Assembly (NCBI GenBank): GCA_040380025.1
Contig: JBEIJY010000002.1
Location: 73,660 to 137,659, forward strand
From: Bdellovibrionales bacterium
GTDB taxonomy: Bacteria > Bdellovibrionota > UBA1018 > CAIMNF01
DNA length: 64,000 nt
Direction of reading: 5' to 3'
Below are positions 35,841-60,359 of the stretch, piece after piece (position 1 is the stretch's first letter; each line of letters starts with the position of its first letter). Under the pieces are notes generated by a model that saw only the letters and a list, made by a program, of their open reading frames with translations, was not told where the DNA came from and did no database searches. A program made the translations under genes and the position numbers.

Positions 35841-35958
35841 GCCCTCATTGGAGCAGAAAACATACCCTGCGACAAGCGATGCAAACTGCCCCCTTCATCG
35901 AGCACAATCAAAGGGGGCAGTTTTCAAGCCGTGGGGGGATGTGATAAATCGACCGAAG

Positions 35959-37011: not shown

Positions 37012-37410
37012 CTATTTCGATGCTTTGAATGCGTCCGCAAGGATCTGGTTTGCCTTCGGGCCGCATTCCTGGATTTCTTGATAGGGAACCGTGCTTCCGT
37101 CGGCTTGATATTGAATGTCTTTGATCACCCGGGCGAATTTGGTTCCGCTTGGAACCAATGCCTGGATGACGTCCGACGCAAAGTATCCGATGGTGTCTAC
37201 GTCAATTCCCGTCCGAAGTTGCTTTCCGATCGATTCCTTCGAACCAACCACGATCACGGGATCGGTCGAGTGGCTCGGATTGCGGATTTCGATCTCGGAA
37301 CCTCCGTTCACCAGAGAAATCTGAAAGGGTCCGCAAAGCGAATCTTCAGAAGTCTGGGCGTGGGAGGGAGTCTGAACCAGGGCAAGAGACAGAAGAAATG
37401 CGGTAATCAT
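37012..37410 (-). CDS. small secreted hypothetical protein (132 aa)
   Basis: Signal peptide MITAFLLSLALVQTPSHA. Convergent with galE. Confidence 0.5.
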   Translation of the reverse strand: MITAFLLSLALVQTPSHAQTSEDSLCGPFQISLVNGGSEIEIRNPSHSTDPVIVVGSKESIGKQLRTGIDVDTIGYFASDVIQALVPSGTKFARVIKDIQYQADGSTVPYQEIQECGPKANQILADAFKASK

Positions 37411-37504
37411 GAGCAGATTTGTACACTACTGCTTGCAGGCTGTCGAGAAAAACTGACACAATGCAAAATCCTGACAAACACTCGCTGGACTCAGAGCTTC
37501 AAGA

Positions 37505-37705
37505 AAATTGAGCCCTTTGAGAGTTCCTGATCAGTACGGTGTTTCGGGAAAGGGGCTGGGGAACAAAAAAGTTTTGCCGAAACACGCGAGCCACGAAGGC
37601 GAAAGCGAGGCCGGAGGACCCGGCTCGGAGGCAAAAACCTTTTTGTTTCCCAGCCCCTTTCCCAAACCACGGTACTGGGTCAAGCACACTCAAAGGGCTC
37701 AGTTT
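37505..37705. repeat. about 200-bp imperfect palindromic element, copy 1 (39-nt conserved core at 37598..37636, reverse orientation)
   Basis: Nested inverted repeats: TTGAGCCCTTTGAGAG with CACTCAAAGGGCTCAG, and GGGAAAGGGGCTGGG with CCCAGCCCCTTTCCC, plus others. The core GGCGAAAGCGAGGCCGGAGGACCCGGCTCGGAGGCAAAA is the exact reverse complement of 40901..40939. Confidence 0.8.
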
Positions 37706-37802
37706 TCGCTTCACGCGGGGGATCTACTTCATTTGGAGAGCATTTTCGTTGCAATTCGGGTGGGTTTTTTCTATTGTGCGCCGCAGAACGGTGAGGAGTT
37801 TT

Positions 37803-38360
37803 ATGAAAAATCCATTTTTTTCGTTGGCGTTGATCGGAATCGTAGCCCTTTCTCAGTCGGGAGCGGCCTTGGCCGATCCACAGGACCGCGAAAACCGGGC
37901 GCGAATCACTCTGAAGGTGATCGAAACCGACGCCGAAGGGCACACCCGTACTCATAAAATCGGAAAGCGTTCCAAGGTTCTGTTTTCGAAGACCCCGAAG
38001 GGAACCGTTCGATTGGCGGTTGACCCCGCGTGGGGCCTGACGGTGTTGGATCGGGTCGAGCCTGATTTCCAGCCCGGTGCATGGTCGATCAAGGGGCATC
38101 TTCCGCAATTGGTCATTGCCAAGCTGATCGAGCAGTCCTGCGACGTGGAGTGCCAGAGCGAGTATCTCTCCGTTCAGAATAAAATCGCCGAGCTGAAGGC
38201 AAGCACCGGATTTTCGGATTACTTTTATGCCGGAGCATTCGAGGTTTCGGGCCCGACCATGGGCTATCTCGACGATTCCAGCGAATTCGAGCTGAAGTAT
38301 CGGCTTTCAGAAGGAACCGAGCTCGTGGTCCGCGTGGACCTTCGTCGCTGGTGGCGCTAA
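37803..38360 (+). CDS. secreted hypothetical protein (185 aa)
   Basis: GGTGAGGAG RBS, ATG 37803 and signal peptide MKNPFFSLALIGIVALSQSGAALA. The longer track ORF starts inside the palindromic element. Confidence 0.55.
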   Translation: MKNPFFSLALIGIVALSQSGAALADPQDRENRARITLKVIETDAEGHTRTHKIGKRSKVLFSKTPKGTVRLAVDPAWGLTVLDRVEPDFQPGAWSIKGHLPQLVIAKLIEQSCDVECQSEYLSVQNKIAELKASTGFSDYFYAGAFEVSGPTMGYLDDSSEFELKYRLSEGTELVVRVDLRRWWR

Positions 38361-38394: not shown

Positions 38395-40767
38395 TTACCA
38401 ATAGGGCACCGTCCGGTAGAACACCGAGGTGTCGAATCTTTGGGATGCCCCGAAGCCCCATTCCGAGGCCCGCTGGCTGAATCCCATGGTCATGAACAGC
38501 GTCTCATCGGCGAGGAGCTTCGCGCTCAGTTTCCGTTCGAGCGGGTCAGGGGAGTTCGGATCGAGAGTGATCGAATTCAAACCCTCTTTGAACTTCAGAT
38601 GCCGGTTGTAGACGATCACCTCGATCGCATCTTTTTTGTGTCGTCTCGACATCGGCTGAATCCGAAAGTACAAAAACTCCGGCGTTTTGCTCAAATTGAA
38701 GTGAATCACGGTTCTTCCAAGCGCATCACGCGAAGAATAGAACGACCGCACGAGGGCCTCGGGGTCTTGCGCGGTCCGTTCGGTCTCGGTTCCCATTCCC
38801 ATCGATTGCGACGAGATCCGGAGCGTGTTTTCCATCGCGGTCGGCGTGTGCCCGCGCACCTGGATGTTCCCGAAGGCCGGATTCTGCGCCACCAAGAACC
38901 GTTCATAGGTGCCGTTCGGGAGTCCCTCCATCAGCAGAATCGGATACAACTCCGAACGCCCCTGATTGGCAAAAAGACGCGTGAGTGCCGCATGTTCGGC
39001 CTGTGCATCCCCGCGAAGAAAAGCTTCGCGCGCCTCCTCGAACCAGCGTTGCTTGAGTCTCAGGCCGAGTCCCTTTGCACGGCGGTCGATTTCTTCCCAC
39101 GGGGTCTCGAGGAAGCGCCGGAGGCCCGAGAGCTTGAAGGTCATTCCGAAGTAAAACGAGCTTCTTCCGTAAAACAGTCGTCTTCCCAGTTTTTTTCCCG
39201 GAGCGGGCGGCGCCCGGCGGGGAAATCGCGGAAAAATCCCTTTCAGTCCCAAATCGGTTTCGACCCGTCCCACGTACCGGTTCAGCGAGGCGGCCATGGT
39301 GTAAGAGTCATCGATGGAGTTCTCGGACATCAGCACGAACGAGTCCTCGAGCTTCTCGCGGAACGCCTGATCATCGATCAGAATCGAGGTGCGATGGGTG
39401 ACGCGTTCCCCGCTTCCGACAAAATCGTATTCCCGCGAGCGGGACTTCACGGACTGAAAAAATCGCTTCTCTCCGTCCGGGAGTTCGATCTCGGTCGTGA
39501 TTTTTTGCGAGCCCCGCGCGACACTGAACCGGATCACCGGGCTTGCACGCCCGCTGAATTCGGCGTTGTGGAGGTGCCGGTCGGTTTTTCGGCGGTACAA
39601 CCGCTCGACCGGAGGTCGCCCTTCTTCGGGTATCATCGCAGAGAGCTCGCTTGACCGGATGAACGAGCCCAGCACCGCACGATGATACGCATCCCTTCCC
39701 TCGGGCGACTCGAGATCGTAGCGGTATCCGACATCGAGGCCGATCTCGCGCGCATTGGTCGCCGTGAACTGAAACGGCGTGATGGTGGGGCTCAGGCGTC
39801 CCACGGTGGTTTCGATGCTCGAACCTTTGAACAGAACAAATCCTTGAAATACCCCCGGAAAGCCAAGTCTTGTTCCCGCCGTGACCTTGAGCTGATCGCC
39901 CTTCAGGCGGCTGATCCGGACTTTCGCGTAGCGATCGTCTTCTTTCATGATCGCGATCTGGTAACTGCCCGTAAAATGGAACTCCACGCCGACTCCCGCG
40001 TAGCCCTCGATCAGGGGTACGGGCGACACATTCCAGCCGAAATCCCCCCCGAAGCCCGCGGTGCCCGAGACGGTGTAGCTGATGATCTCGTTCTTCTTCA
40101 TGCGCTTCTTCACGCAGTTCGCATGAAAGGGGATTTTGAAGGGGAGCTTTACGAGATTCAACACATCCCGGAGCTTTACCCGCATCGCCGCATCGAGCGG
40201 ACTGGAGTTCAGGTACGGGTTCAGGTCTTCGATGTCGGCCTCGTCGCCCGGGCCCGCGTTCTCGAAATCGAGGGCCTCCTTGGTGCGGGCTTTTTCGGGG
40301 CTCATCTGCCGGATGTTCCGGATCTCGAATGAGCCATCGACCCCGAGGCGCATTCCGCCCACGGGGAACTGCAGAACCTGATCGGGAATCCGCTCGGGGG
40401 GGCCCACGGTCAGGTCCGCGCCGACGATGCGCGAAGCGAGGCGGATCGAGAACGAGTCGATCACCGTCCAGGTGTTCAGGGTGTCGTAGTTGTTGAAGAT
40501 GTTGCGTCCGATGCGGACCGCGCCCGAGCCGATTCCGGGAATGTCGCTGTCATACAGGGGAATCGAGGTGTTTCCGTCGAAGAGGGCGTTCACGATCCGG
40601 TATTCGAGGGCTTCGCCCCGGGTCATCGAGGATTGGTAGAACTCCTCGGGCCAGGGTCTTGGCTGGAAGTCGAAGCCCGGCGGAGGAGGGCGCGGCACTT
40701 CGATTTGTGCGAGCGCGATCCCCGGCATGGCCAGCAATGCCGCAAAGAAAATGCGAAGCAAATTCAC
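38395..40767 (-). CDS. large secreted hypothetical protein (790 aa)
   Basis: Signal peptide MNLLRIFFAALLAMPGIALA. No recognisable family. The antisense ORFs across it are Arg-rich artefacts. Confidence 0.65.
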   Translation of the reverse strand: MNLLRIFFAALLAMPGIALAQIEVPRPPPPGFDFQPRPWPEEFYQSSMTRGEALEYRIVNALFDGNTSIPLYDSDIPGIGSGAVRIGRNIFNNYDTLNTWTVIDSFSIRLASRIVGADLTVGPPERIPDQVLQFPVGGMRLGVDGSFEIRNIRQMSPEKARTKEALDFENAGPGDEADIEDLNPYLNSSPLDAAMRVKLRDVLNLVKLPFKIPFHANCVKKRMKKNEIISYTVSGTAGFGGDFGWNVSPVPLIEGYAGVGVEFHFTGSYQIAIMKEDDRYAKVRISRLKGDQLKVTAGTRLGFPGVFQGFVLFKGSSIETTVGRLSPTITPFQFTATNAREIGLDVGYRYDLESPEGRDAYHRAVLGSFIRSSELSAMIPEEGRPPVERLYRRKTDRHLHNAEFSGRASPVIRFSVARGSQKITTEIELPDGEKRFFQSVKSRSREYDFVGSGERVTHRTSILIDDQAFREKLEDSFVLMSENSIDDSYTMAASLNRYVGRVETDLGLKGIFPRFPRRAPPAPGKKLGRRLFYGRSSFYFGMTFKLSGLRRFLETPWEEIDRRAKGLGLRLKQRWFEEAREAFLRGDAQAEHAALTRLFANQGRSELYPILLMEGLPNGTYERFLVAQNPAFGNIQVRGHTPTAMENTLRISSQSMGMGTETERTAQDPEALVRSFYSSRDALGRTVIHFNLSKTPEFLYFRIQPMSRRHKKDAIEVIVYNRHLKFKEGLNSITLDPNSPDPLERKLSAKLLADETLFMTMGFSQRASEWGFGASQRFDTSVFYRTVPYW

Positions 40768-40836
40768 CCTCCCGAATGAACGATCCCGACAGCACCGTAA
40801 ACCGGATTGATGTACCGAGTCGAGGGATTTTCAAAA

Positions 40837-41027
40837 CTGCTCCATTTGATTGCGCCTCATTTGGAATTTGGGTTGAGAATGCACCCGAACAGAAAAACGA
40901 TTTTGCCTCCGAGCCGGGTCCTCCGGCCTCGCTTTCGCCATCCTGGCTCGCGAGAGTCGGCAAACTCCTTTTTCTGCCCGGGTACATTCTCAACCCAAGT
41001 TCCGATGGGCACAATCAAATGGGGCAG
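40837..41027. repeat. about 190-bp imperfect palindromic element, copy 2 (conserved core 40901..40939)
   Basis: Left arm CTGCTCCATTTGATTGCGCCTCATTTGGAATTTGGGTTGAGAATG is almost the exact reverse complement of right arm CATTCTCAACCCAAGTTCCGATGGGCACAATCAAATGGGGCAG. The core TTTTGCCTCCGAGCCGGGTCCTCCGGCCTCGCTTTCGCC is shared with copy 1. Confidence 0.8.
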
Positions 41028-41046
41028 TTTGTGGTATACGGCCTCG

Positions 41047-42003
41047 ATGGAATTTCAAATCCTGATGACCAATCTCACGAATCCGACTCTTTTGTTTTTT
41101 GTTCTCGGTGCCTTTGCGGCACTCGTAAAGAGCGATCTCGAGATCCCTCCCCACACGATCAAGTTCATCTCGCTCTATTTGTTGTTCTCGATCGGATTCC
41201 GAGGCGGGCAGGAGCTCGCGCACAGCGGCTTCACCACCGAGGTCCTGCTGGCCCTCGGCTTTGGCGTCGTGCTGGCGACCGTGATTCCGATTTTCTTGTT
41301 TTTTGCGCTCAAAAGACGATTCTCGGTGGCCGATGCCGGCGCCATTGCCGCCACCTACGGATCGGTGAGCGCCGTGACCTTCGTGGCCGCGAACTCGTTT
41401 TTGGAGTTTCAGGGTCTCCATGCCGGGGGGCACATGGTGGCAGTCATGGCCGCGATGGAGGCTCCCGCGATCATCGTCGGGGTTTCGCTGATCAGCTGGT
41501 ACGACCGGAGTACGCCGGTGTCGTTCAAGACGGTGCTTCATCACTCGCTCACGAACGGGAGCATCCTGATGGTGGTGGGGAGCCTCGTGATCGGTCTGAT
41601 TGCCGATGCCAAGCAGGCCGAGGGGATCCGGCCGTTCGCTTCAGATATCTTCAAGGGGTTTCTTGCGATCTTTCTGCTCGAGATGGGCATGGTCACCGTG
41701 AACCGGATCCGGACCTTTCTGCGCTATGGACCAGTGGCCTCGATCATCTCGACCGTGGTGCCGCTCTTGAACGGGGGCGTGGTCGCGTACGTGAGCCAAT
41801 GGGTCACGGCCGATCCGGCGAACCGGTTTATGTTCTCGATTCTCGCCGCGAGCGGGTCTTACATTGCGGTTCCGGCCACCCTCCGGCTCGCGGTCCCGAA
41901 GGCCGATCCAGGCCTGTACATTCCGATGGCGCTCGGAATCACCTTCCCGGTGAACCTTACGATCGGAATGCCGTTTTATTTTTGGATCGTGCACCGTCTC
42001 TAG
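41047..42003 (+). CDS. SbtA-like (DUF897) sodium-dependent bicarbonate-transporter-family permease
   Basis: About ten TM helices with two internal repeats, typical of the SbtA family. The ATG at 41047 follows the palindromic element. Confidence 0.7.
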   Translation: MEFQILMTNLTNPTLLFFVLGAFAALVKSDLEIPPHTIKFISLYLLFSIGFRGGQELAHSGFTTEVLLALGFGVVLATVIPIFLFFALKRRFSVADAGAIAATYGSVSAVTFVAANSFLEFQGLHAGGHMVAVMAAMEAPAIIVGVSLISWYDRSTPVSFKTVLHHSLTNGSILMVVGSLVIGLIADAKQAEGIRPFASDIFKGFLAIFLLEMGMVTVNRIRTFLRYGPVASIISTVVPLLNGGVVAYVSQWVTADPANRFMFSILAASGSYIAVPATLRLAVPKADPGLYIPMALGITFPVNLTIGMPFYFWIVHRL

Positions 42004-59113: not shown

Positions 59114-60271
59114 TCAGGGGCCGGCTCTTTCATCAAAGTGGCCGGACCAGAGAGCGTGCAAAAAATCCTCCACCGGGTAGCATTCGATCCCGCCGTCCCA
59201 TTGTCTGGCTCCGGTGTCAAAAGACACCATCACGAAGCGTTTGAATTTTTTTTCTTCCTGAAGCGCTCTCAAGCCCTTGAAGTGTCGTTCCGAGAGCCGG
59301 TTGGTGCTTTTCACCTCGATTGCCACGCGATCATCGAGGCAAAAATCAACCTCATGTCCGGCAGTGGAGCGCCAGAAGGAGATTGGCTCGTGGGTTTTTC
59401 GATAGCTTCGATGGCATCGGAGCTCATGAAGAATCCAGTGCTCAAGCGCGATTCCGAAGTCATCGGAATTCCGATTGAGTTCTTTCCGGTCGATCAGGGC
59501 AGCCTGGACTCCCGGATCGAACAGGTAAAATTTGACGGTTTGAATGGCTTTTCTTTTTTTAGAAAGTCGCCAGGGCTCAAGCTCCGTACCGATCAGGGTA
59601 TCCCGCAACAACTCGAAATAAGCGCGAACCGTGGTCTCGGGAACCCCGGAGTCGCTTGATACCGAGGAATAGTTCAAAAGTTGTCCCGAGCTCAATGCCG
59701 CGATTTTCAGGAAGCGTACGAACTGGCCCAGATTCCTTACGGCCGCCTCCTCTTCGATTTCCTGCTTCAGGTAGGTGTCGGTATAGGCCTTCAGGTCGGC
59801 CCAAGGGTCGTCACTCAGCAAAACAGAGGGAAGCGATCCGTAGTGAAGCTTGCGTTCCAGCGGAACGGACGGGGACTCTCCATGGGTGACCCCGAACATT
59901 TCGAGCACCCTTGCCCTGCCACCGAGGAGGTTGGCAGAGGATCGCTTCAGTTTTCGGGCGCTACTGCCCGTAAGAAGGAAGCGGATCTTTTTTTCTTCGA
60001 TCAGGGCATGAACCTCGTCGAGCAGATCGGGGATTTTTTGGATTTCATCGATGACCACGCCTTTTTTTCGGGGGTCGATCATGTTTCGCAGATACCCCGG
60101 GTTTTCGATCAGCCGGAGGCGATCCTCGCTTCGGAGCAGTGAGATCAGTTGATATTCCGGGACCAGGGTTTCCCGGATCAAGGAGGTTTTTCCGACCCCC
60201 CGAGGGCCGAATAAAAAGTGGGATTTGGCCTGAACGGCCCCTTTGAGATCCAGTGTTCGTGAAAAGAGCAT
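59114..60271 (-). CDS. AAA+ ATPase (AAA_14 plus DUF4143 architecture)
   Basis: Walker A GPRGVGKTS and Walker B VVIDEIQ. The C-terminal region resembles DUF4143. Confidence 0.8.
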   Translation of the reverse strand: MLFSRTLDLKGAVQAKSHFLFGPRGVGKTSLIRETLVPEYQLISLLRSEDRLRLIENPGYLRNMIDPRKKGVVIDEIQKIPDLLDEVHALIEEKKIRFLLTGSSARKLKRSSANLLGGRARVLEMFGVTHGESPSVPLERKLHYGSLPSVLLSDDPWADLKAYTDTYLKQEIEEEAAVRNLGQFVRFLKIAALSSGQLLNYSSVSSDSGVPETTVRAYFELLRDTLIGTELEPWRLSKKRKAIQTVKFYLFDPGVQAALIDRKELNRNSDDFGIALEHWILHELRCHRSYRKTHEPISFWRSTAGHEVDFCLDDRVAIEVKSTNRLSERHFKGLRALQEEKKFKRFVMVSFDTGARQWDGGIECYPVEDFLHALWSGHFDERAGP

Positions 60272-60297
60272 CTTTTGCAGGATACTCGATTATTCCC

Positions 60298-60339
60298 CTG
60301 TGGAGTAGCGGATTATCATGATTATCCGCTACTCCACAG
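60298..60339. promoter_or_regulatory. 42-bp near-perfect palindrome 27 nt upstream of the AAA+ ATPase start
   Basis: CTGTGGAGTAGCGGA-TTATCATGATTA-TCCGCTACTCCACAG has 15-bp perfect arms. No U-tract follows on the transcribed strand. Confidence 0.5.
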
Positions 60340-60359
60340 AGGATGGTTATGGTTTGGAG

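Follow-up and report, generated by a model that had tools for sequence, protein, structure and literature searches.

The window analysed here is a 64,000-nt stretch of contig JBEIJY010000002.1 from a Bdellovibrionales bacterium (assembly GCA_040380025.1), and all window coordinates are positions within it. It carries an sbtA-like permease gene at 41047-42003 on the plus strand (Pfam Sbt_1, E = 9e-105) and, divergent from it on the minus strand, a gene at 38395-40767 for a 790-aa protein with a signal-peptide-like N-terminus and no Pfam match. The region shared by these two genes contains, as the original prediction had it, a palindromic element, copy 2 (40833-41031, assigned to the plus strand, on which the loops at its tip read TCCT). 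It ends 15 nt before the sbtA ATG at 41047, rather than the 20 nt first proposed, and lies 66 nt from the start of the 790-aa gene. The palindrome is genuine and its statistics are robust. Copy 2 is one resident member of a dispersed family of non-coding palindromic repeats, found so far in Bdellovibrionota-type genomes and undescribed in Rfam and in the literature searched. We class the family with the repeats that resemble miniature inverted-repeat transposable elements (MITEs) and the hairpins formed by repetitive extragenic palindromes (REPs), known as REPINs, but with an unusual anatomy in which a structured centre is conserved and the arms are specific to each copy.

Copy 2 is a long imperfect palindrome of about 200 nt, detected by inverted repeats, by its RNA and DNA folds and by a covariance-model match (40900-40966, 80.9 bits). 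Its arms had been described as near-perfect reverse complements of 40-45 nt; they are about 75 nt long, complementary at 63 of 75 positions, and the window copies reach 84-85% complementarity. An inverted-repeat search resolves the arms into a 45-nt pair (40863-40907 and 40959-41003, 87% complementary) and a 23-nt pair (40834-40856 and 41008-41030, 91% complementary), which flank a 51-nt centre. The predicted RNA fold has a free energy of -120.6 kcal/mol, compared to -60.0 ± 4.4 kcal/mol for shuffled sequences (z = -13.7; 0 of 200 shuffles as good), and the DNA fold reaches -69.6 kcal/mol (z = -13.3). On the plus strand, the left arm begins with a terminal module (AAAACTGCTCCATTTGATTGCGCC, 40833-40856) that recurs in copy 1, in a remnant at 35883-35924 and in two related contigs, L001, which carries an sbtA orthologue, and L003, which is syntenic with the window. 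It continues with a middle segment (40857-40890) that resembles neither copy 1 nor the L001 copy (p = 0.12 for the latter), and ends with the left side of an inner stem (AGAAAAACGATTTTGCC, 40891-40907) that is common to copy 1 in the two-copy alignment. The apical core (40908-40958) folds into a three-way junction and is conserved in more than 20 copies elsewhere, and the right arm (40959-41031) consists of inner stem, copy-specific middle segment and right terminal module and contains an ATG at 41005. Within the core, hairpin A (GCCGG-GTCCT-CCGGC, 40913-40927) has a stem that covaries across copies, hairpin B (GCCA-TCC-TGGC or GCC-ATCCT-GGC, 40937-40947) is nearly invariant, and stem P3 (CTCGC/GCGAG, 40928-40954) encloses hairpin B in the minimum free energy structure.

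The same architecture is found in opposite orientation at 37503-37707 (copy 1, minus strand), where it was identified by its fold (RNA z = -12.0), its inverted repeats (arms complementary at 66 of 78 positions) and a covariance-model match (37571-37637, 68.9 bits). Copy 1 sits between divergent small ORFs (open reading frames) at 37012-37410 (minus) and 37803-38360 (plus). A 34-nt core occurs exactly twice in the window against an expectation of 0, and the two copies are identical over 39 nt (40901-40939), spanning inner stem and most of the centre. The core-plus-spacer layout proposed for both copies is confirmed, and the spacers quoted after the core, ATCCTGGCTCGCGAGAGTC versus TTCGTGGCTCGCGTGTTTC, are correct. 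The accompanying claim that the arms differ between copies holds for the middle segments, which have no detectable similarity (p = 0.25), but not for the inner stem of about 17 nt or the outer 23-nt terminal module (AAAACTGNNCCNTTTGANTGNGC), which are shared. The terminal-module pattern matches five arms at three loci in the window, compared to 0.04 matches expected; the termini of L001 and L003 resemble it (p = 0.009, 0.016 and 0.0005), and the motif is also present in L016. The third window locus is the 42-nt hairpin at 35883-35924 (minus), detected by pattern matches, which comprises terminal modules only (23 nt + TCGATG + 14 nt), has a TRL-like lipoprotein gene on one side and galE on the other, and is missing at the syntenic site in L003. 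It is probably a centrally deleted remnant of a third copy. Copy 1, copy 2 and the remnant each lie between divergently oriented genes, and the copies have no conserved ORF in common. In L003, galE directly adjoins a 793-aa gene; compared to that arrangement, the segment 37012-38360 with copy 1 and the two small ORFs constitutes a 1.4-kb insertion; these ORFs encode 132 aa (minus) and 185 aa (plus), with signal-peptide-like N-termini and no Pfam match.

The family extends to more than 20 relatives in metagenome-assembled genomes (MAGs) of Bdellovibrionota and in metagenomes, all of them intergenic. The core is rare in the exact form seen in the window, and an exact 22-nt core had no match in the genome contigs, where the source genome does not figure among the GTDB species representatives, or in the metagenome contigs. 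A pattern redesigned from the core positions conserved in L001 (TCGCTTNCGCCNTCNTGGCTCG) identified 25 genome loci and 27 metagenome loci. Five Bdellovibrionota MAGs account for nine of the genome loci, with no more than four in any one MAG, and L007, from an unclassified MAG, is a further true member. Every Bdellovibrionota match and several metagenome matches form a long hairpin with the motif at its tip, while the remaining scattered matches are coding-like and attributable to chance. A motif-independent scan of the same loci for long hairpins recovered additional copies of the same design with a different core sequence, and up to five copies in the fragments of one MAG. Searching with the covariance model added a further copy in L001 and returned only the two known copies in the window; an additional 8.7 kb of DNA from the source genome contained no further copy. 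The nearest named relative of the window sbtA is annotated as Bdellovibrionales. By rough ORF calling, most copies lie between convergent genes, some between divergent genes and one between co-directional genes. The plasmid and phage collections gave no matches and the viral contigs only chance matches in coding sequence, so a viral, plasmid or phage origin was rejected. At gathering thresholds, only a tRNA in the window passes in Rfam; at permissive thresholds, the best models on the element are generic microRNA-hairpin models with about 28 bits against gathering thresholds of 80-140, and nothing covers the element in 15 related loci.

All of these copies share a Y-shaped hairpin whose tip is a 50-58-nt three-way junction, set on a stem of about 10-17 bp that is common within a genome. 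The tip starts with a short TCC(A/G/C)(C/A)G lead-in, followed by hairpin A, which has an NTCCT loop on a 4-5-bp stem whose sequence varies. A linker, usually TCGCTTTCGCC, leads to hairpin B (GCC-ATCCT-GGC), after which TCGC runs into the strand that pairs back around hairpin B. The two hairpins have stems of 3-5 bp and N-TCCT-G loops, and they stand 22-26 nt apart, usually linked by TCGCTTTCGCC...GGCTCGC. Stem P3 is paired in copies of the GAGAG type, while copies of the AAAAG type pair CTTTT/AAAAG instead. Among 45 tip hairpins, loop and closing base read N-T-C-C-T-G: the first loop position varies (A 29, C 6, G 5, T 5), the fourth is C in 38, the fifth is T in 42, and the closing base is G in 42. 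Beyond the shared stem, the outer arms range from 24 to about 115 nt and are unique to each copy in all genomes analysed (p = 0.12-0.5 between copies). The MAG with five copies has five unrelated arm pairs, with only the core and about 11 bp in common, and the copies L007a and L007b have only AAAAACTGAG and the core in common. The L007 contig holds three copies within 2 kb (L007:2211-4256), two of which represent a distinct core subfamily (GAGCATCC(T/C)TGCTC ... CCCCGCATCCTGCGGGG) that does not have the TCGCTTTCGCC linker. The inner stem of L007a and L007b, AAAAACTGAG, is the motif of the outer termini in the window.

The original prediction anticipated covariation once more copies were aligned, and it is significant in both alignments that we built. 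MAFFT misregistered the variable stems of untrimmed copies, and we used a hand-trimmed alignment of 13 sequences, covering the core and 8 bp of stem, and a model-based alignment of 24 distinct sequences. In the hand-trimmed alignment, 88.8% of cells are paired (71.6% when shuffled), 50 changes affect both sides of a pair (15.8 when shuffled; 0 of 500 shuffles reach this count), and the covariation score is 0.465 (0.156 when shuffled, at most 0.136 when slid). The corresponding values for the model-based alignment are 87.1% (67.8%), 90 (28.4) and 0.404 (0.121 when shuffled, at most 0.113 when slid). Changes on both sides involve all eight basal-stem pairs and all four hairpin-A pairs of the model-based alignment, and three of the five hairpin-A pairs of the hand-trimmed one. 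Hairpin A occurs with stems such as GCCGC/GCGGC, GGAC/GTCC, GAAC/GTTC and AGGC/GCCT, and the stem of hairpin B covaries in L052 (GTCA/TGAC) and in L001:6473-6541 (CGC/GCG). A comparison of copy 2 with its orthologue in L001 reveals the same in a single pair of copies, as hairpin A changes from GCCGG/CCGGC to GCGGC/GCCGC and hairpin B from GCC/GGC to CGC/GCG. Both tip hairpins are kept through compensatory changes despite sequence divergence. Comparing the orthologous loci L022 and L048, we find all 55 core positions identical and 5 of 48 arm positions changed, against a flank identity of 75-85%. We regard selection on the small tip as plausible, and as better supported than selection on the arms.

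A 28-nt motif around hairpin B also appears, almost identical, in 5S-adjacent loci of another phylum, represented by Riflebacteria-like MAGs (L013, L015, L031, L037, L050 and L053). There, it lies about 95 nt downstream of 5S rRNA genes, just past the 5S terminator, and a third hairpin with an ATCCT loop covaries (GCGCC/GGCGC, GCGAC/GTCGC, GGCAC/GTGCC). Among the Riflebacteria-like MAGs and the metagenomes, the 5S-adjacent motif is apparently conserved and single-copy. Derivation of the core from 5S rRNA itself was considered and rejected, as a match of only 9-14 nt (GAGAGTCGG...; p = 0.004-0.09) is insufficient.

The original prediction took divergent but complementary arms as the signature of selection on a secondary structure. 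This remains plausible for the small tip but is probably wrong for the long stem, where arms decay, can be host-derived and flank a core that can be flipped. The 24-bp stem of L022 has one mismatch and that of its orthologue L048 has four, none of them compensated, and the L001 copy at the site orthologous to copy 2 is 74% paired. L003 retains the terminal motif at the same junction (p = 0.0005-0.016), with no core and no structure (z = +0.43); its use as an empty site was rejected, and we regard it as a decayed copy. Across 21 copies, the arms carry 100 non-wobble (transversion) mismatches, and a comparison of L018 with L026 reveals one compensated double change. The 3' half of a genuine tRNA-Arg(CCT) gene forms the outer left arm of L018, with an inverted copy in the right arm, and in the 5S-adjacent architecture of Riflebacteria-like MAGs the stem combines an inverted and a direct copy of the 5S 3' tail. 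An element in L001, at the junction on the upstream side of the 790-aa gene's orthologue (64% identity), has the same terminal module, unrelated middle arms and an inverted core.

Quasipalindrome correction was reportedly described by Ripley in 1982. Replication template switching between inverted repeats can homogenise arms, extend them in one step and invert the spacer, and it creates perfect stems and apparent compensatory changes without selection (PMC8794818, PMC8604942, PMC13100816). The covariation of the long stem is significant, yet it is no proof of selection, because template switching yields covariation mutationally. Judging from the sequence signatures above, the long stem is probably kept self-complementary by a DNA-copying mechanism and not by selection.

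The family is patchily distributed, being present or absent among close relatives (L061 and L002 have none), and its unit recurs at sites with no relation to one another. L018 and L036 are about 98% identical over about 175 nt, a stretch comprising hairpin, core and a 48-nt right-hand extension, and their flanks are unrelated on both sides. In both loci (L018:3526-3751 and L036:1427-1590), the unit carries a 36-nt inverted and diverged copy of the tRNA-Arg(CCT) 3' half with a left junction reading ...CCACCA; in L018 it directly follows the tRNA gene, and in L036 it lies at an unrelated site without a tRNA. We infer that copy 2 is an old insertion between the 790-aa gene and sbtA. Neither copy 1, copy 2 nor the remnant has a consistent target-site duplication. 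A 28-nt direct repeat flanking copy 2 was rejected as such a duplication and is ancestral, since both of its halves are present in L003. The locus L061, which has no element, is too distant for an empty-site comparison. The original prediction argued against a transposase-binding TIR (terminal inverted repeat), and we found no transposase among the 38 window ORFs scanned, nor any integrase, reverse transcriptase, HUH nuclease, RAYT, relaxase or Rep gene. In an independent Logan assembly of the same organism (ERR9973196), a contig (L062:1-31) begins inside the core, directly after the 39 nt common to copies 1 and 2, indicating that the repeat breaks short-read assemblies.

The position of copy 2 has consequences for sbtA. 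In the public annotation, the gene begins at the ATG at 41005, which falls in the right arm of the element, and the public protein of 332 aa is identical to the window translation from this position, with 14 more N-terminal residues than its orthologues. Since the orthologues start at a Met equivalent to 41047, the extension is probably an annotation artefact caused by the repeat. Because element and ATG are only 15 nt apart, the sbtA promoter has to be inside the element or upstream of it, so the earlier reasoning that the hairpin constrains the promoter is sound. The very stable hairpin stands at the edge of the sbtA ribosome-binding region, and its location makes an effect of copy 2 on sbtA expression plausible. 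Copy 2 is not a dedicated sbtA regulator, because the element occurs beside unrelated genes and a covariance-model search found it absent upstream of sbtA in L002 and L061. In L003 the element at the sbtA locus is decayed, and in L001 it has a flipped core and is set apart from sbtA by a 1102-aa gene; a cis-regulatory leader would be conserved upstream of orthologous sbtA genes in fixed orientation, unlike what these loci contain. The sbtA-like gene of L002 (L002:8957-13276) lies between rpsG (S7) and fusA (EF-G), inside an otherwise conserved str operon. Elsewhere in the window, a 50-bp palindrome without spacer occupies 60294-60343, its 25-nt arms being 92% complementary, and an AAA_14/DUF4143 ATPase gene (59114-60271) starts 23 nt away from it. 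In JGI sample 3300059473, too, contigs with sbtA homologues have AAA_14/DUF4143 genes flanking them.

We evaluated what might recognise the tip. On the complementary strand, 19 cores carry two loops reading CAGGAN in 3-5-bp hairpins 22-26 nt apart. Csr/Rsm target RNAs are characterised by GGA loops in short hairpins, with at least two sites 10-63 nt apart, and the tips have this arrangement; the CsrA site of the CsrB type is CAGGA(U/A/C)G, and dual sites have an optimum spacing above 18 nt and stems of at most 4 bp (PMC7652899). With 22-26 nt between them, the two loops are suitably placed for a CsrA dimer to bind both. The CsrA of B. bacteriovorus is functional on a leader with two GGA stem-loops (PMC13443453). 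The alternative ligand is suggested by the nick core of MOBP relaxases and VirD2, 5'-ATCCTG-3', with the consensus (C/T)ATCCTG(C/T) (PMC3772185). At the variable loop position the CsrA motif is degenerate, but the relaxase core requires an A there; this match, the 3-5-bp stems, the spacing and the functional CsrA of B. bacteriovorus favour the CsrA-type reading. Weak support comes from 21 oriented copies, in which transition-type arm mismatches would be G.U on the GGA strand in 52 cases versus 27 on the TCCT strand (p = 0.0066), and counted per element the asymmetry is 14 versus 4. The DNA retrieved for this analysis contained no csrA gene. An Rfam RsmY match in the window is sub-threshold (13.1 bits against a gathering threshold of 57) and lies elsewhere, at 39427-39528. 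By a simple consensus scan, neither window copy has the promoter and terminator of its own that would mark an independent small RNA. Binding of the tip as RNA of the complementary strand, at a putative CsrA-type dual site, is on this motif evidence a tentative reading that we hold to be possible rather than probable. The broader proposal is unlikely: that the tips are dispersed CsrA-binding modules and that a mobile repeat would seed two-GGA-hairpin decoy or regulatory sites into the untranslated regions of many Bdellovibrionota transcripts. If it were true, the long stem would be a self-renewing scaffold made and repaired by template switching, and the 5S-adjacent tip motif in Riflebacteria-like MAGs would mark an older, possibly cellular, origin of the module. 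To our knowledge, no CsrA-antagonising small RNA has been described in Bdellovibrionota.

Taken as a whole, the observations are on balance best explained by a dispersed family of Y-shaped repeats with template-switched arms and a functional tip, an account that we consider somewhat probable. The family is multi-copy and patchy in relatives, its unit occurs at unrelated sites, and its tip is conserved and covarying. Template switching or arm-to-arm conversion would repeatedly copy one arm from the other, so that the arms stay complementary, and selection on individual bases would not be the main cause of their complementarity. The same copying process may extend the palindrome into flanking DNA and occasionally flip the tip. 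The tip would be the functional part, bound by a factor that recognises the pair of identical hairpin loops in single-stranded nucleic acid, most likely as CAGGAN loops in RNA of the complementary strand.

Several observations weigh against parts of this account. The 23-nt terminal module common to the window, L001 and L003 has the look of an ordinary TIR, which pure outward growth of a palindrome would not predict. Arms derived from flanking DNA are seen only in the tRNA and 5S cases; the arms of copy 2 have no significant similarity to the decayed L003 sequence (p = 0.4-0.9), and an origin of these arms from the ancestral flank seen in L003 was rejected after the apparent resemblance failed shuffling. 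No truly empty site was recovered for any copy, so insertion is deduced from the patchy distribution and the comparison of L018 with L036. The core identity of 55 of 55 positions could reflect gene conversion among genomic copies and not selection at the host level. Regarding the ligand, the MOBP nick core and CAGGAN are reverse complements of each other, so the motif by itself does not discriminate between the two. The wobble asymmetry may reflect either selection on RNA or strand-biased deamination, and the counts are balanced in the two window copies (3 versus 4, and 3 versus 3). The core has no bias in orientation relative to genes (11 versus 10 copies); most contexts, being convergent or divergent, are uninformative on this point. 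A simple consensus scan found no sigma-70-like promoter or intrinsic terminator near either window copy.

Other explanations account for some of these points. The terminal modules (AAAACTGNNCCNTTTGANTGNGC) could be TIRs bound by a transposase encoded elsewhere, with the internal differences reflecting subfamily divergence within a conventional MITE. Such an element would be non-coding, multi-copy, intergenic and patchy among relatives, as this one is, and the terminal module at three window loci (five arms), in L001, L003 and L016 and in the inner stem of L007a and L007b agrees with it, together with the termini-only remnant at 35883-35924. In other genomes, however, conservation is limited to the centre and the ends differ from copy to copy, opposite to the layout of a MITE. 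Unrelated middle arms beside a 100% identical core are not produced by simple divergence, no consistent target-site duplication flanks copy 1, copy 2 or the remnant (the 28-nt repeat at copy 2 is ancestral), and neither the 38 window ORFs nor the plasmid and phage collections yielded a transposase or a match, respectively. We judge a conventional MITE to be quite unlikely. Selection on the whole hairpin as an RNA structure, be it double-stranded RNA processed by RNase III, a transcript stabiliser or insulator, or a cis-regulatory leader of sbtA, appears distinctly unlikely. It would explain the very strong folding z-scores, the significant covariation in all eight basal-stem pairs, the compensated double change between L018 and L026, the wobble bias towards one strand and the abutment on the sbtA start. 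It is contradicted by 100 non-wobble arm mismatches in 21 copies, by arms that decay in orthologues and vary from 24 to 115 nt in length, by neighbours that are unrelated and mostly convergent genes, by sbtA orthologues without the element (L002, L061) or with a decayed one (L003), and by the absence of an Rfam match; template switching can also mimic covariation (PMC8794818).

The element might also be a substrate of an HUH-type nuclease, relaxase-like or Rep-like, whose ATCCTG nick motif would be presented by the two tip loops when the DNA is extruded or single-stranded; a nick and fold-back priming there would both mobilise the element and make the palindrome, by analogy with rolling-hairpin replication. 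Twenty-six of the 45 loops read ATCCTG, the MOBP/VirD2 nick core, but the A at loop position 1, which is needed for cleavage, varies in 16 of 45, and the nick of an origin of transfer lies 3' of its inverted repeat (PMC3772185) whereas here the motif is in hairpin loops. The equally stable DNA fold (z = -13.3) and the unbiased orientation relative to genes speak for it, and a conserved centre with variable ends would agree with recognition at the tip. The wobble asymmetry, in contrast, points to an RNA-level or strand-specific effect, the window has no relaxase or Rep gene, and no plasmid, phage or genuine viral match was found. We consider this proposal very unlikely. Finally, assembly artefacts such as fold-back chimeras can yield palindromes, and one independent assembly breaks inside a copy. 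A chance palindrome or artefact is nevertheless effectively refuted by more than 20 related copies in independent assemblies (NCBI, ENA, JGI and Logan), by orthologous copies conserved across species and by a 39-nt identical core in two copies where 0 were expected, and we assign it a negligible probability.

The preferred account, a Y-shaped repeat family with template-switched arms and a functional tip, would provide a natural case in which covariation, the usual gold standard for selected RNA structure, is probably largely mutational and due to template switching. This is relevant to genome scans for structured RNAs by Infernal or R-scape. The family has an anatomy inverse to that of MITEs and REPINs, and it comes from predatory Bdellovibrionota, which have barely been studied for repeats or post-transcriptional control. 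Its tip offers a testable candidate for CsrA targets or decoys in Bdellovibrionota. In practical terms, the element breaks assemblies and led public annotation to start sbtA inside a repeat.

Like the MITEs Correia/NEMIS, Nezha and Chunjie, the copies are short, non-coding, multi-copy, intergenic and patchy in relatives, and they form a long hairpin. MITEs sometimes abut gene starts and alter expression, and copies of this family can likewise abut gene starts; in the lineage of the window, the shared terminal module behaves like a TIR. Unlike MITEs, the family conserves its centre rather than its ends, has outer arms unique to each copy and has neither target-site duplications nor a partner transposase in the window. 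REP and REPIN sequences, mobilised by RAYT/TnpA_REP, are also dispersed intergenic palindromes that form hairpins, often between convergent genes; REP/REPIN hairpins are about 100 nt long and thought to be recognised as single-stranded hairpins. REPINs have conserved REP arms and a variable loop, whereas here the arms vary and the core is conserved, with no GTAG-type head and no RAYT among the window ORFs. Complementary copy-specific arms, arms derived from tRNA and 5S tails and a flipped core are shared with template-switched inverted repeats. Published cases of template switching concern short unrelated repeats of a few to tens of bp with short spacers, in contrast to the conserved, structured spacer of 50-58 nt and the arms of up to 115 nt seen here, where the process is deduced from its signatures. 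The tip resembles the sponge RNAs CsrB and RsmY/Z and the two-hairpin CsrA site of the hag leader in its CAGGA(N)G loops, short stems and dual-site spacing; unlike Csr/Rsm sponge RNAs, each element has only two GGA sites and no detected promoter or terminator of its own. The inverted terminal repeats of parvoviruses such as adeno-associated virus are T-shaped, with a long palindromic stem capped by two small internal hairpins and tips in "flip" and "flop" orientations. The family may be likened to them in topology and in its two tip orientations, an analogy of shape only, as its members are chromosomal bacterial repeats that have no sequence similarity to these viral termini and no Rep gene in the window.

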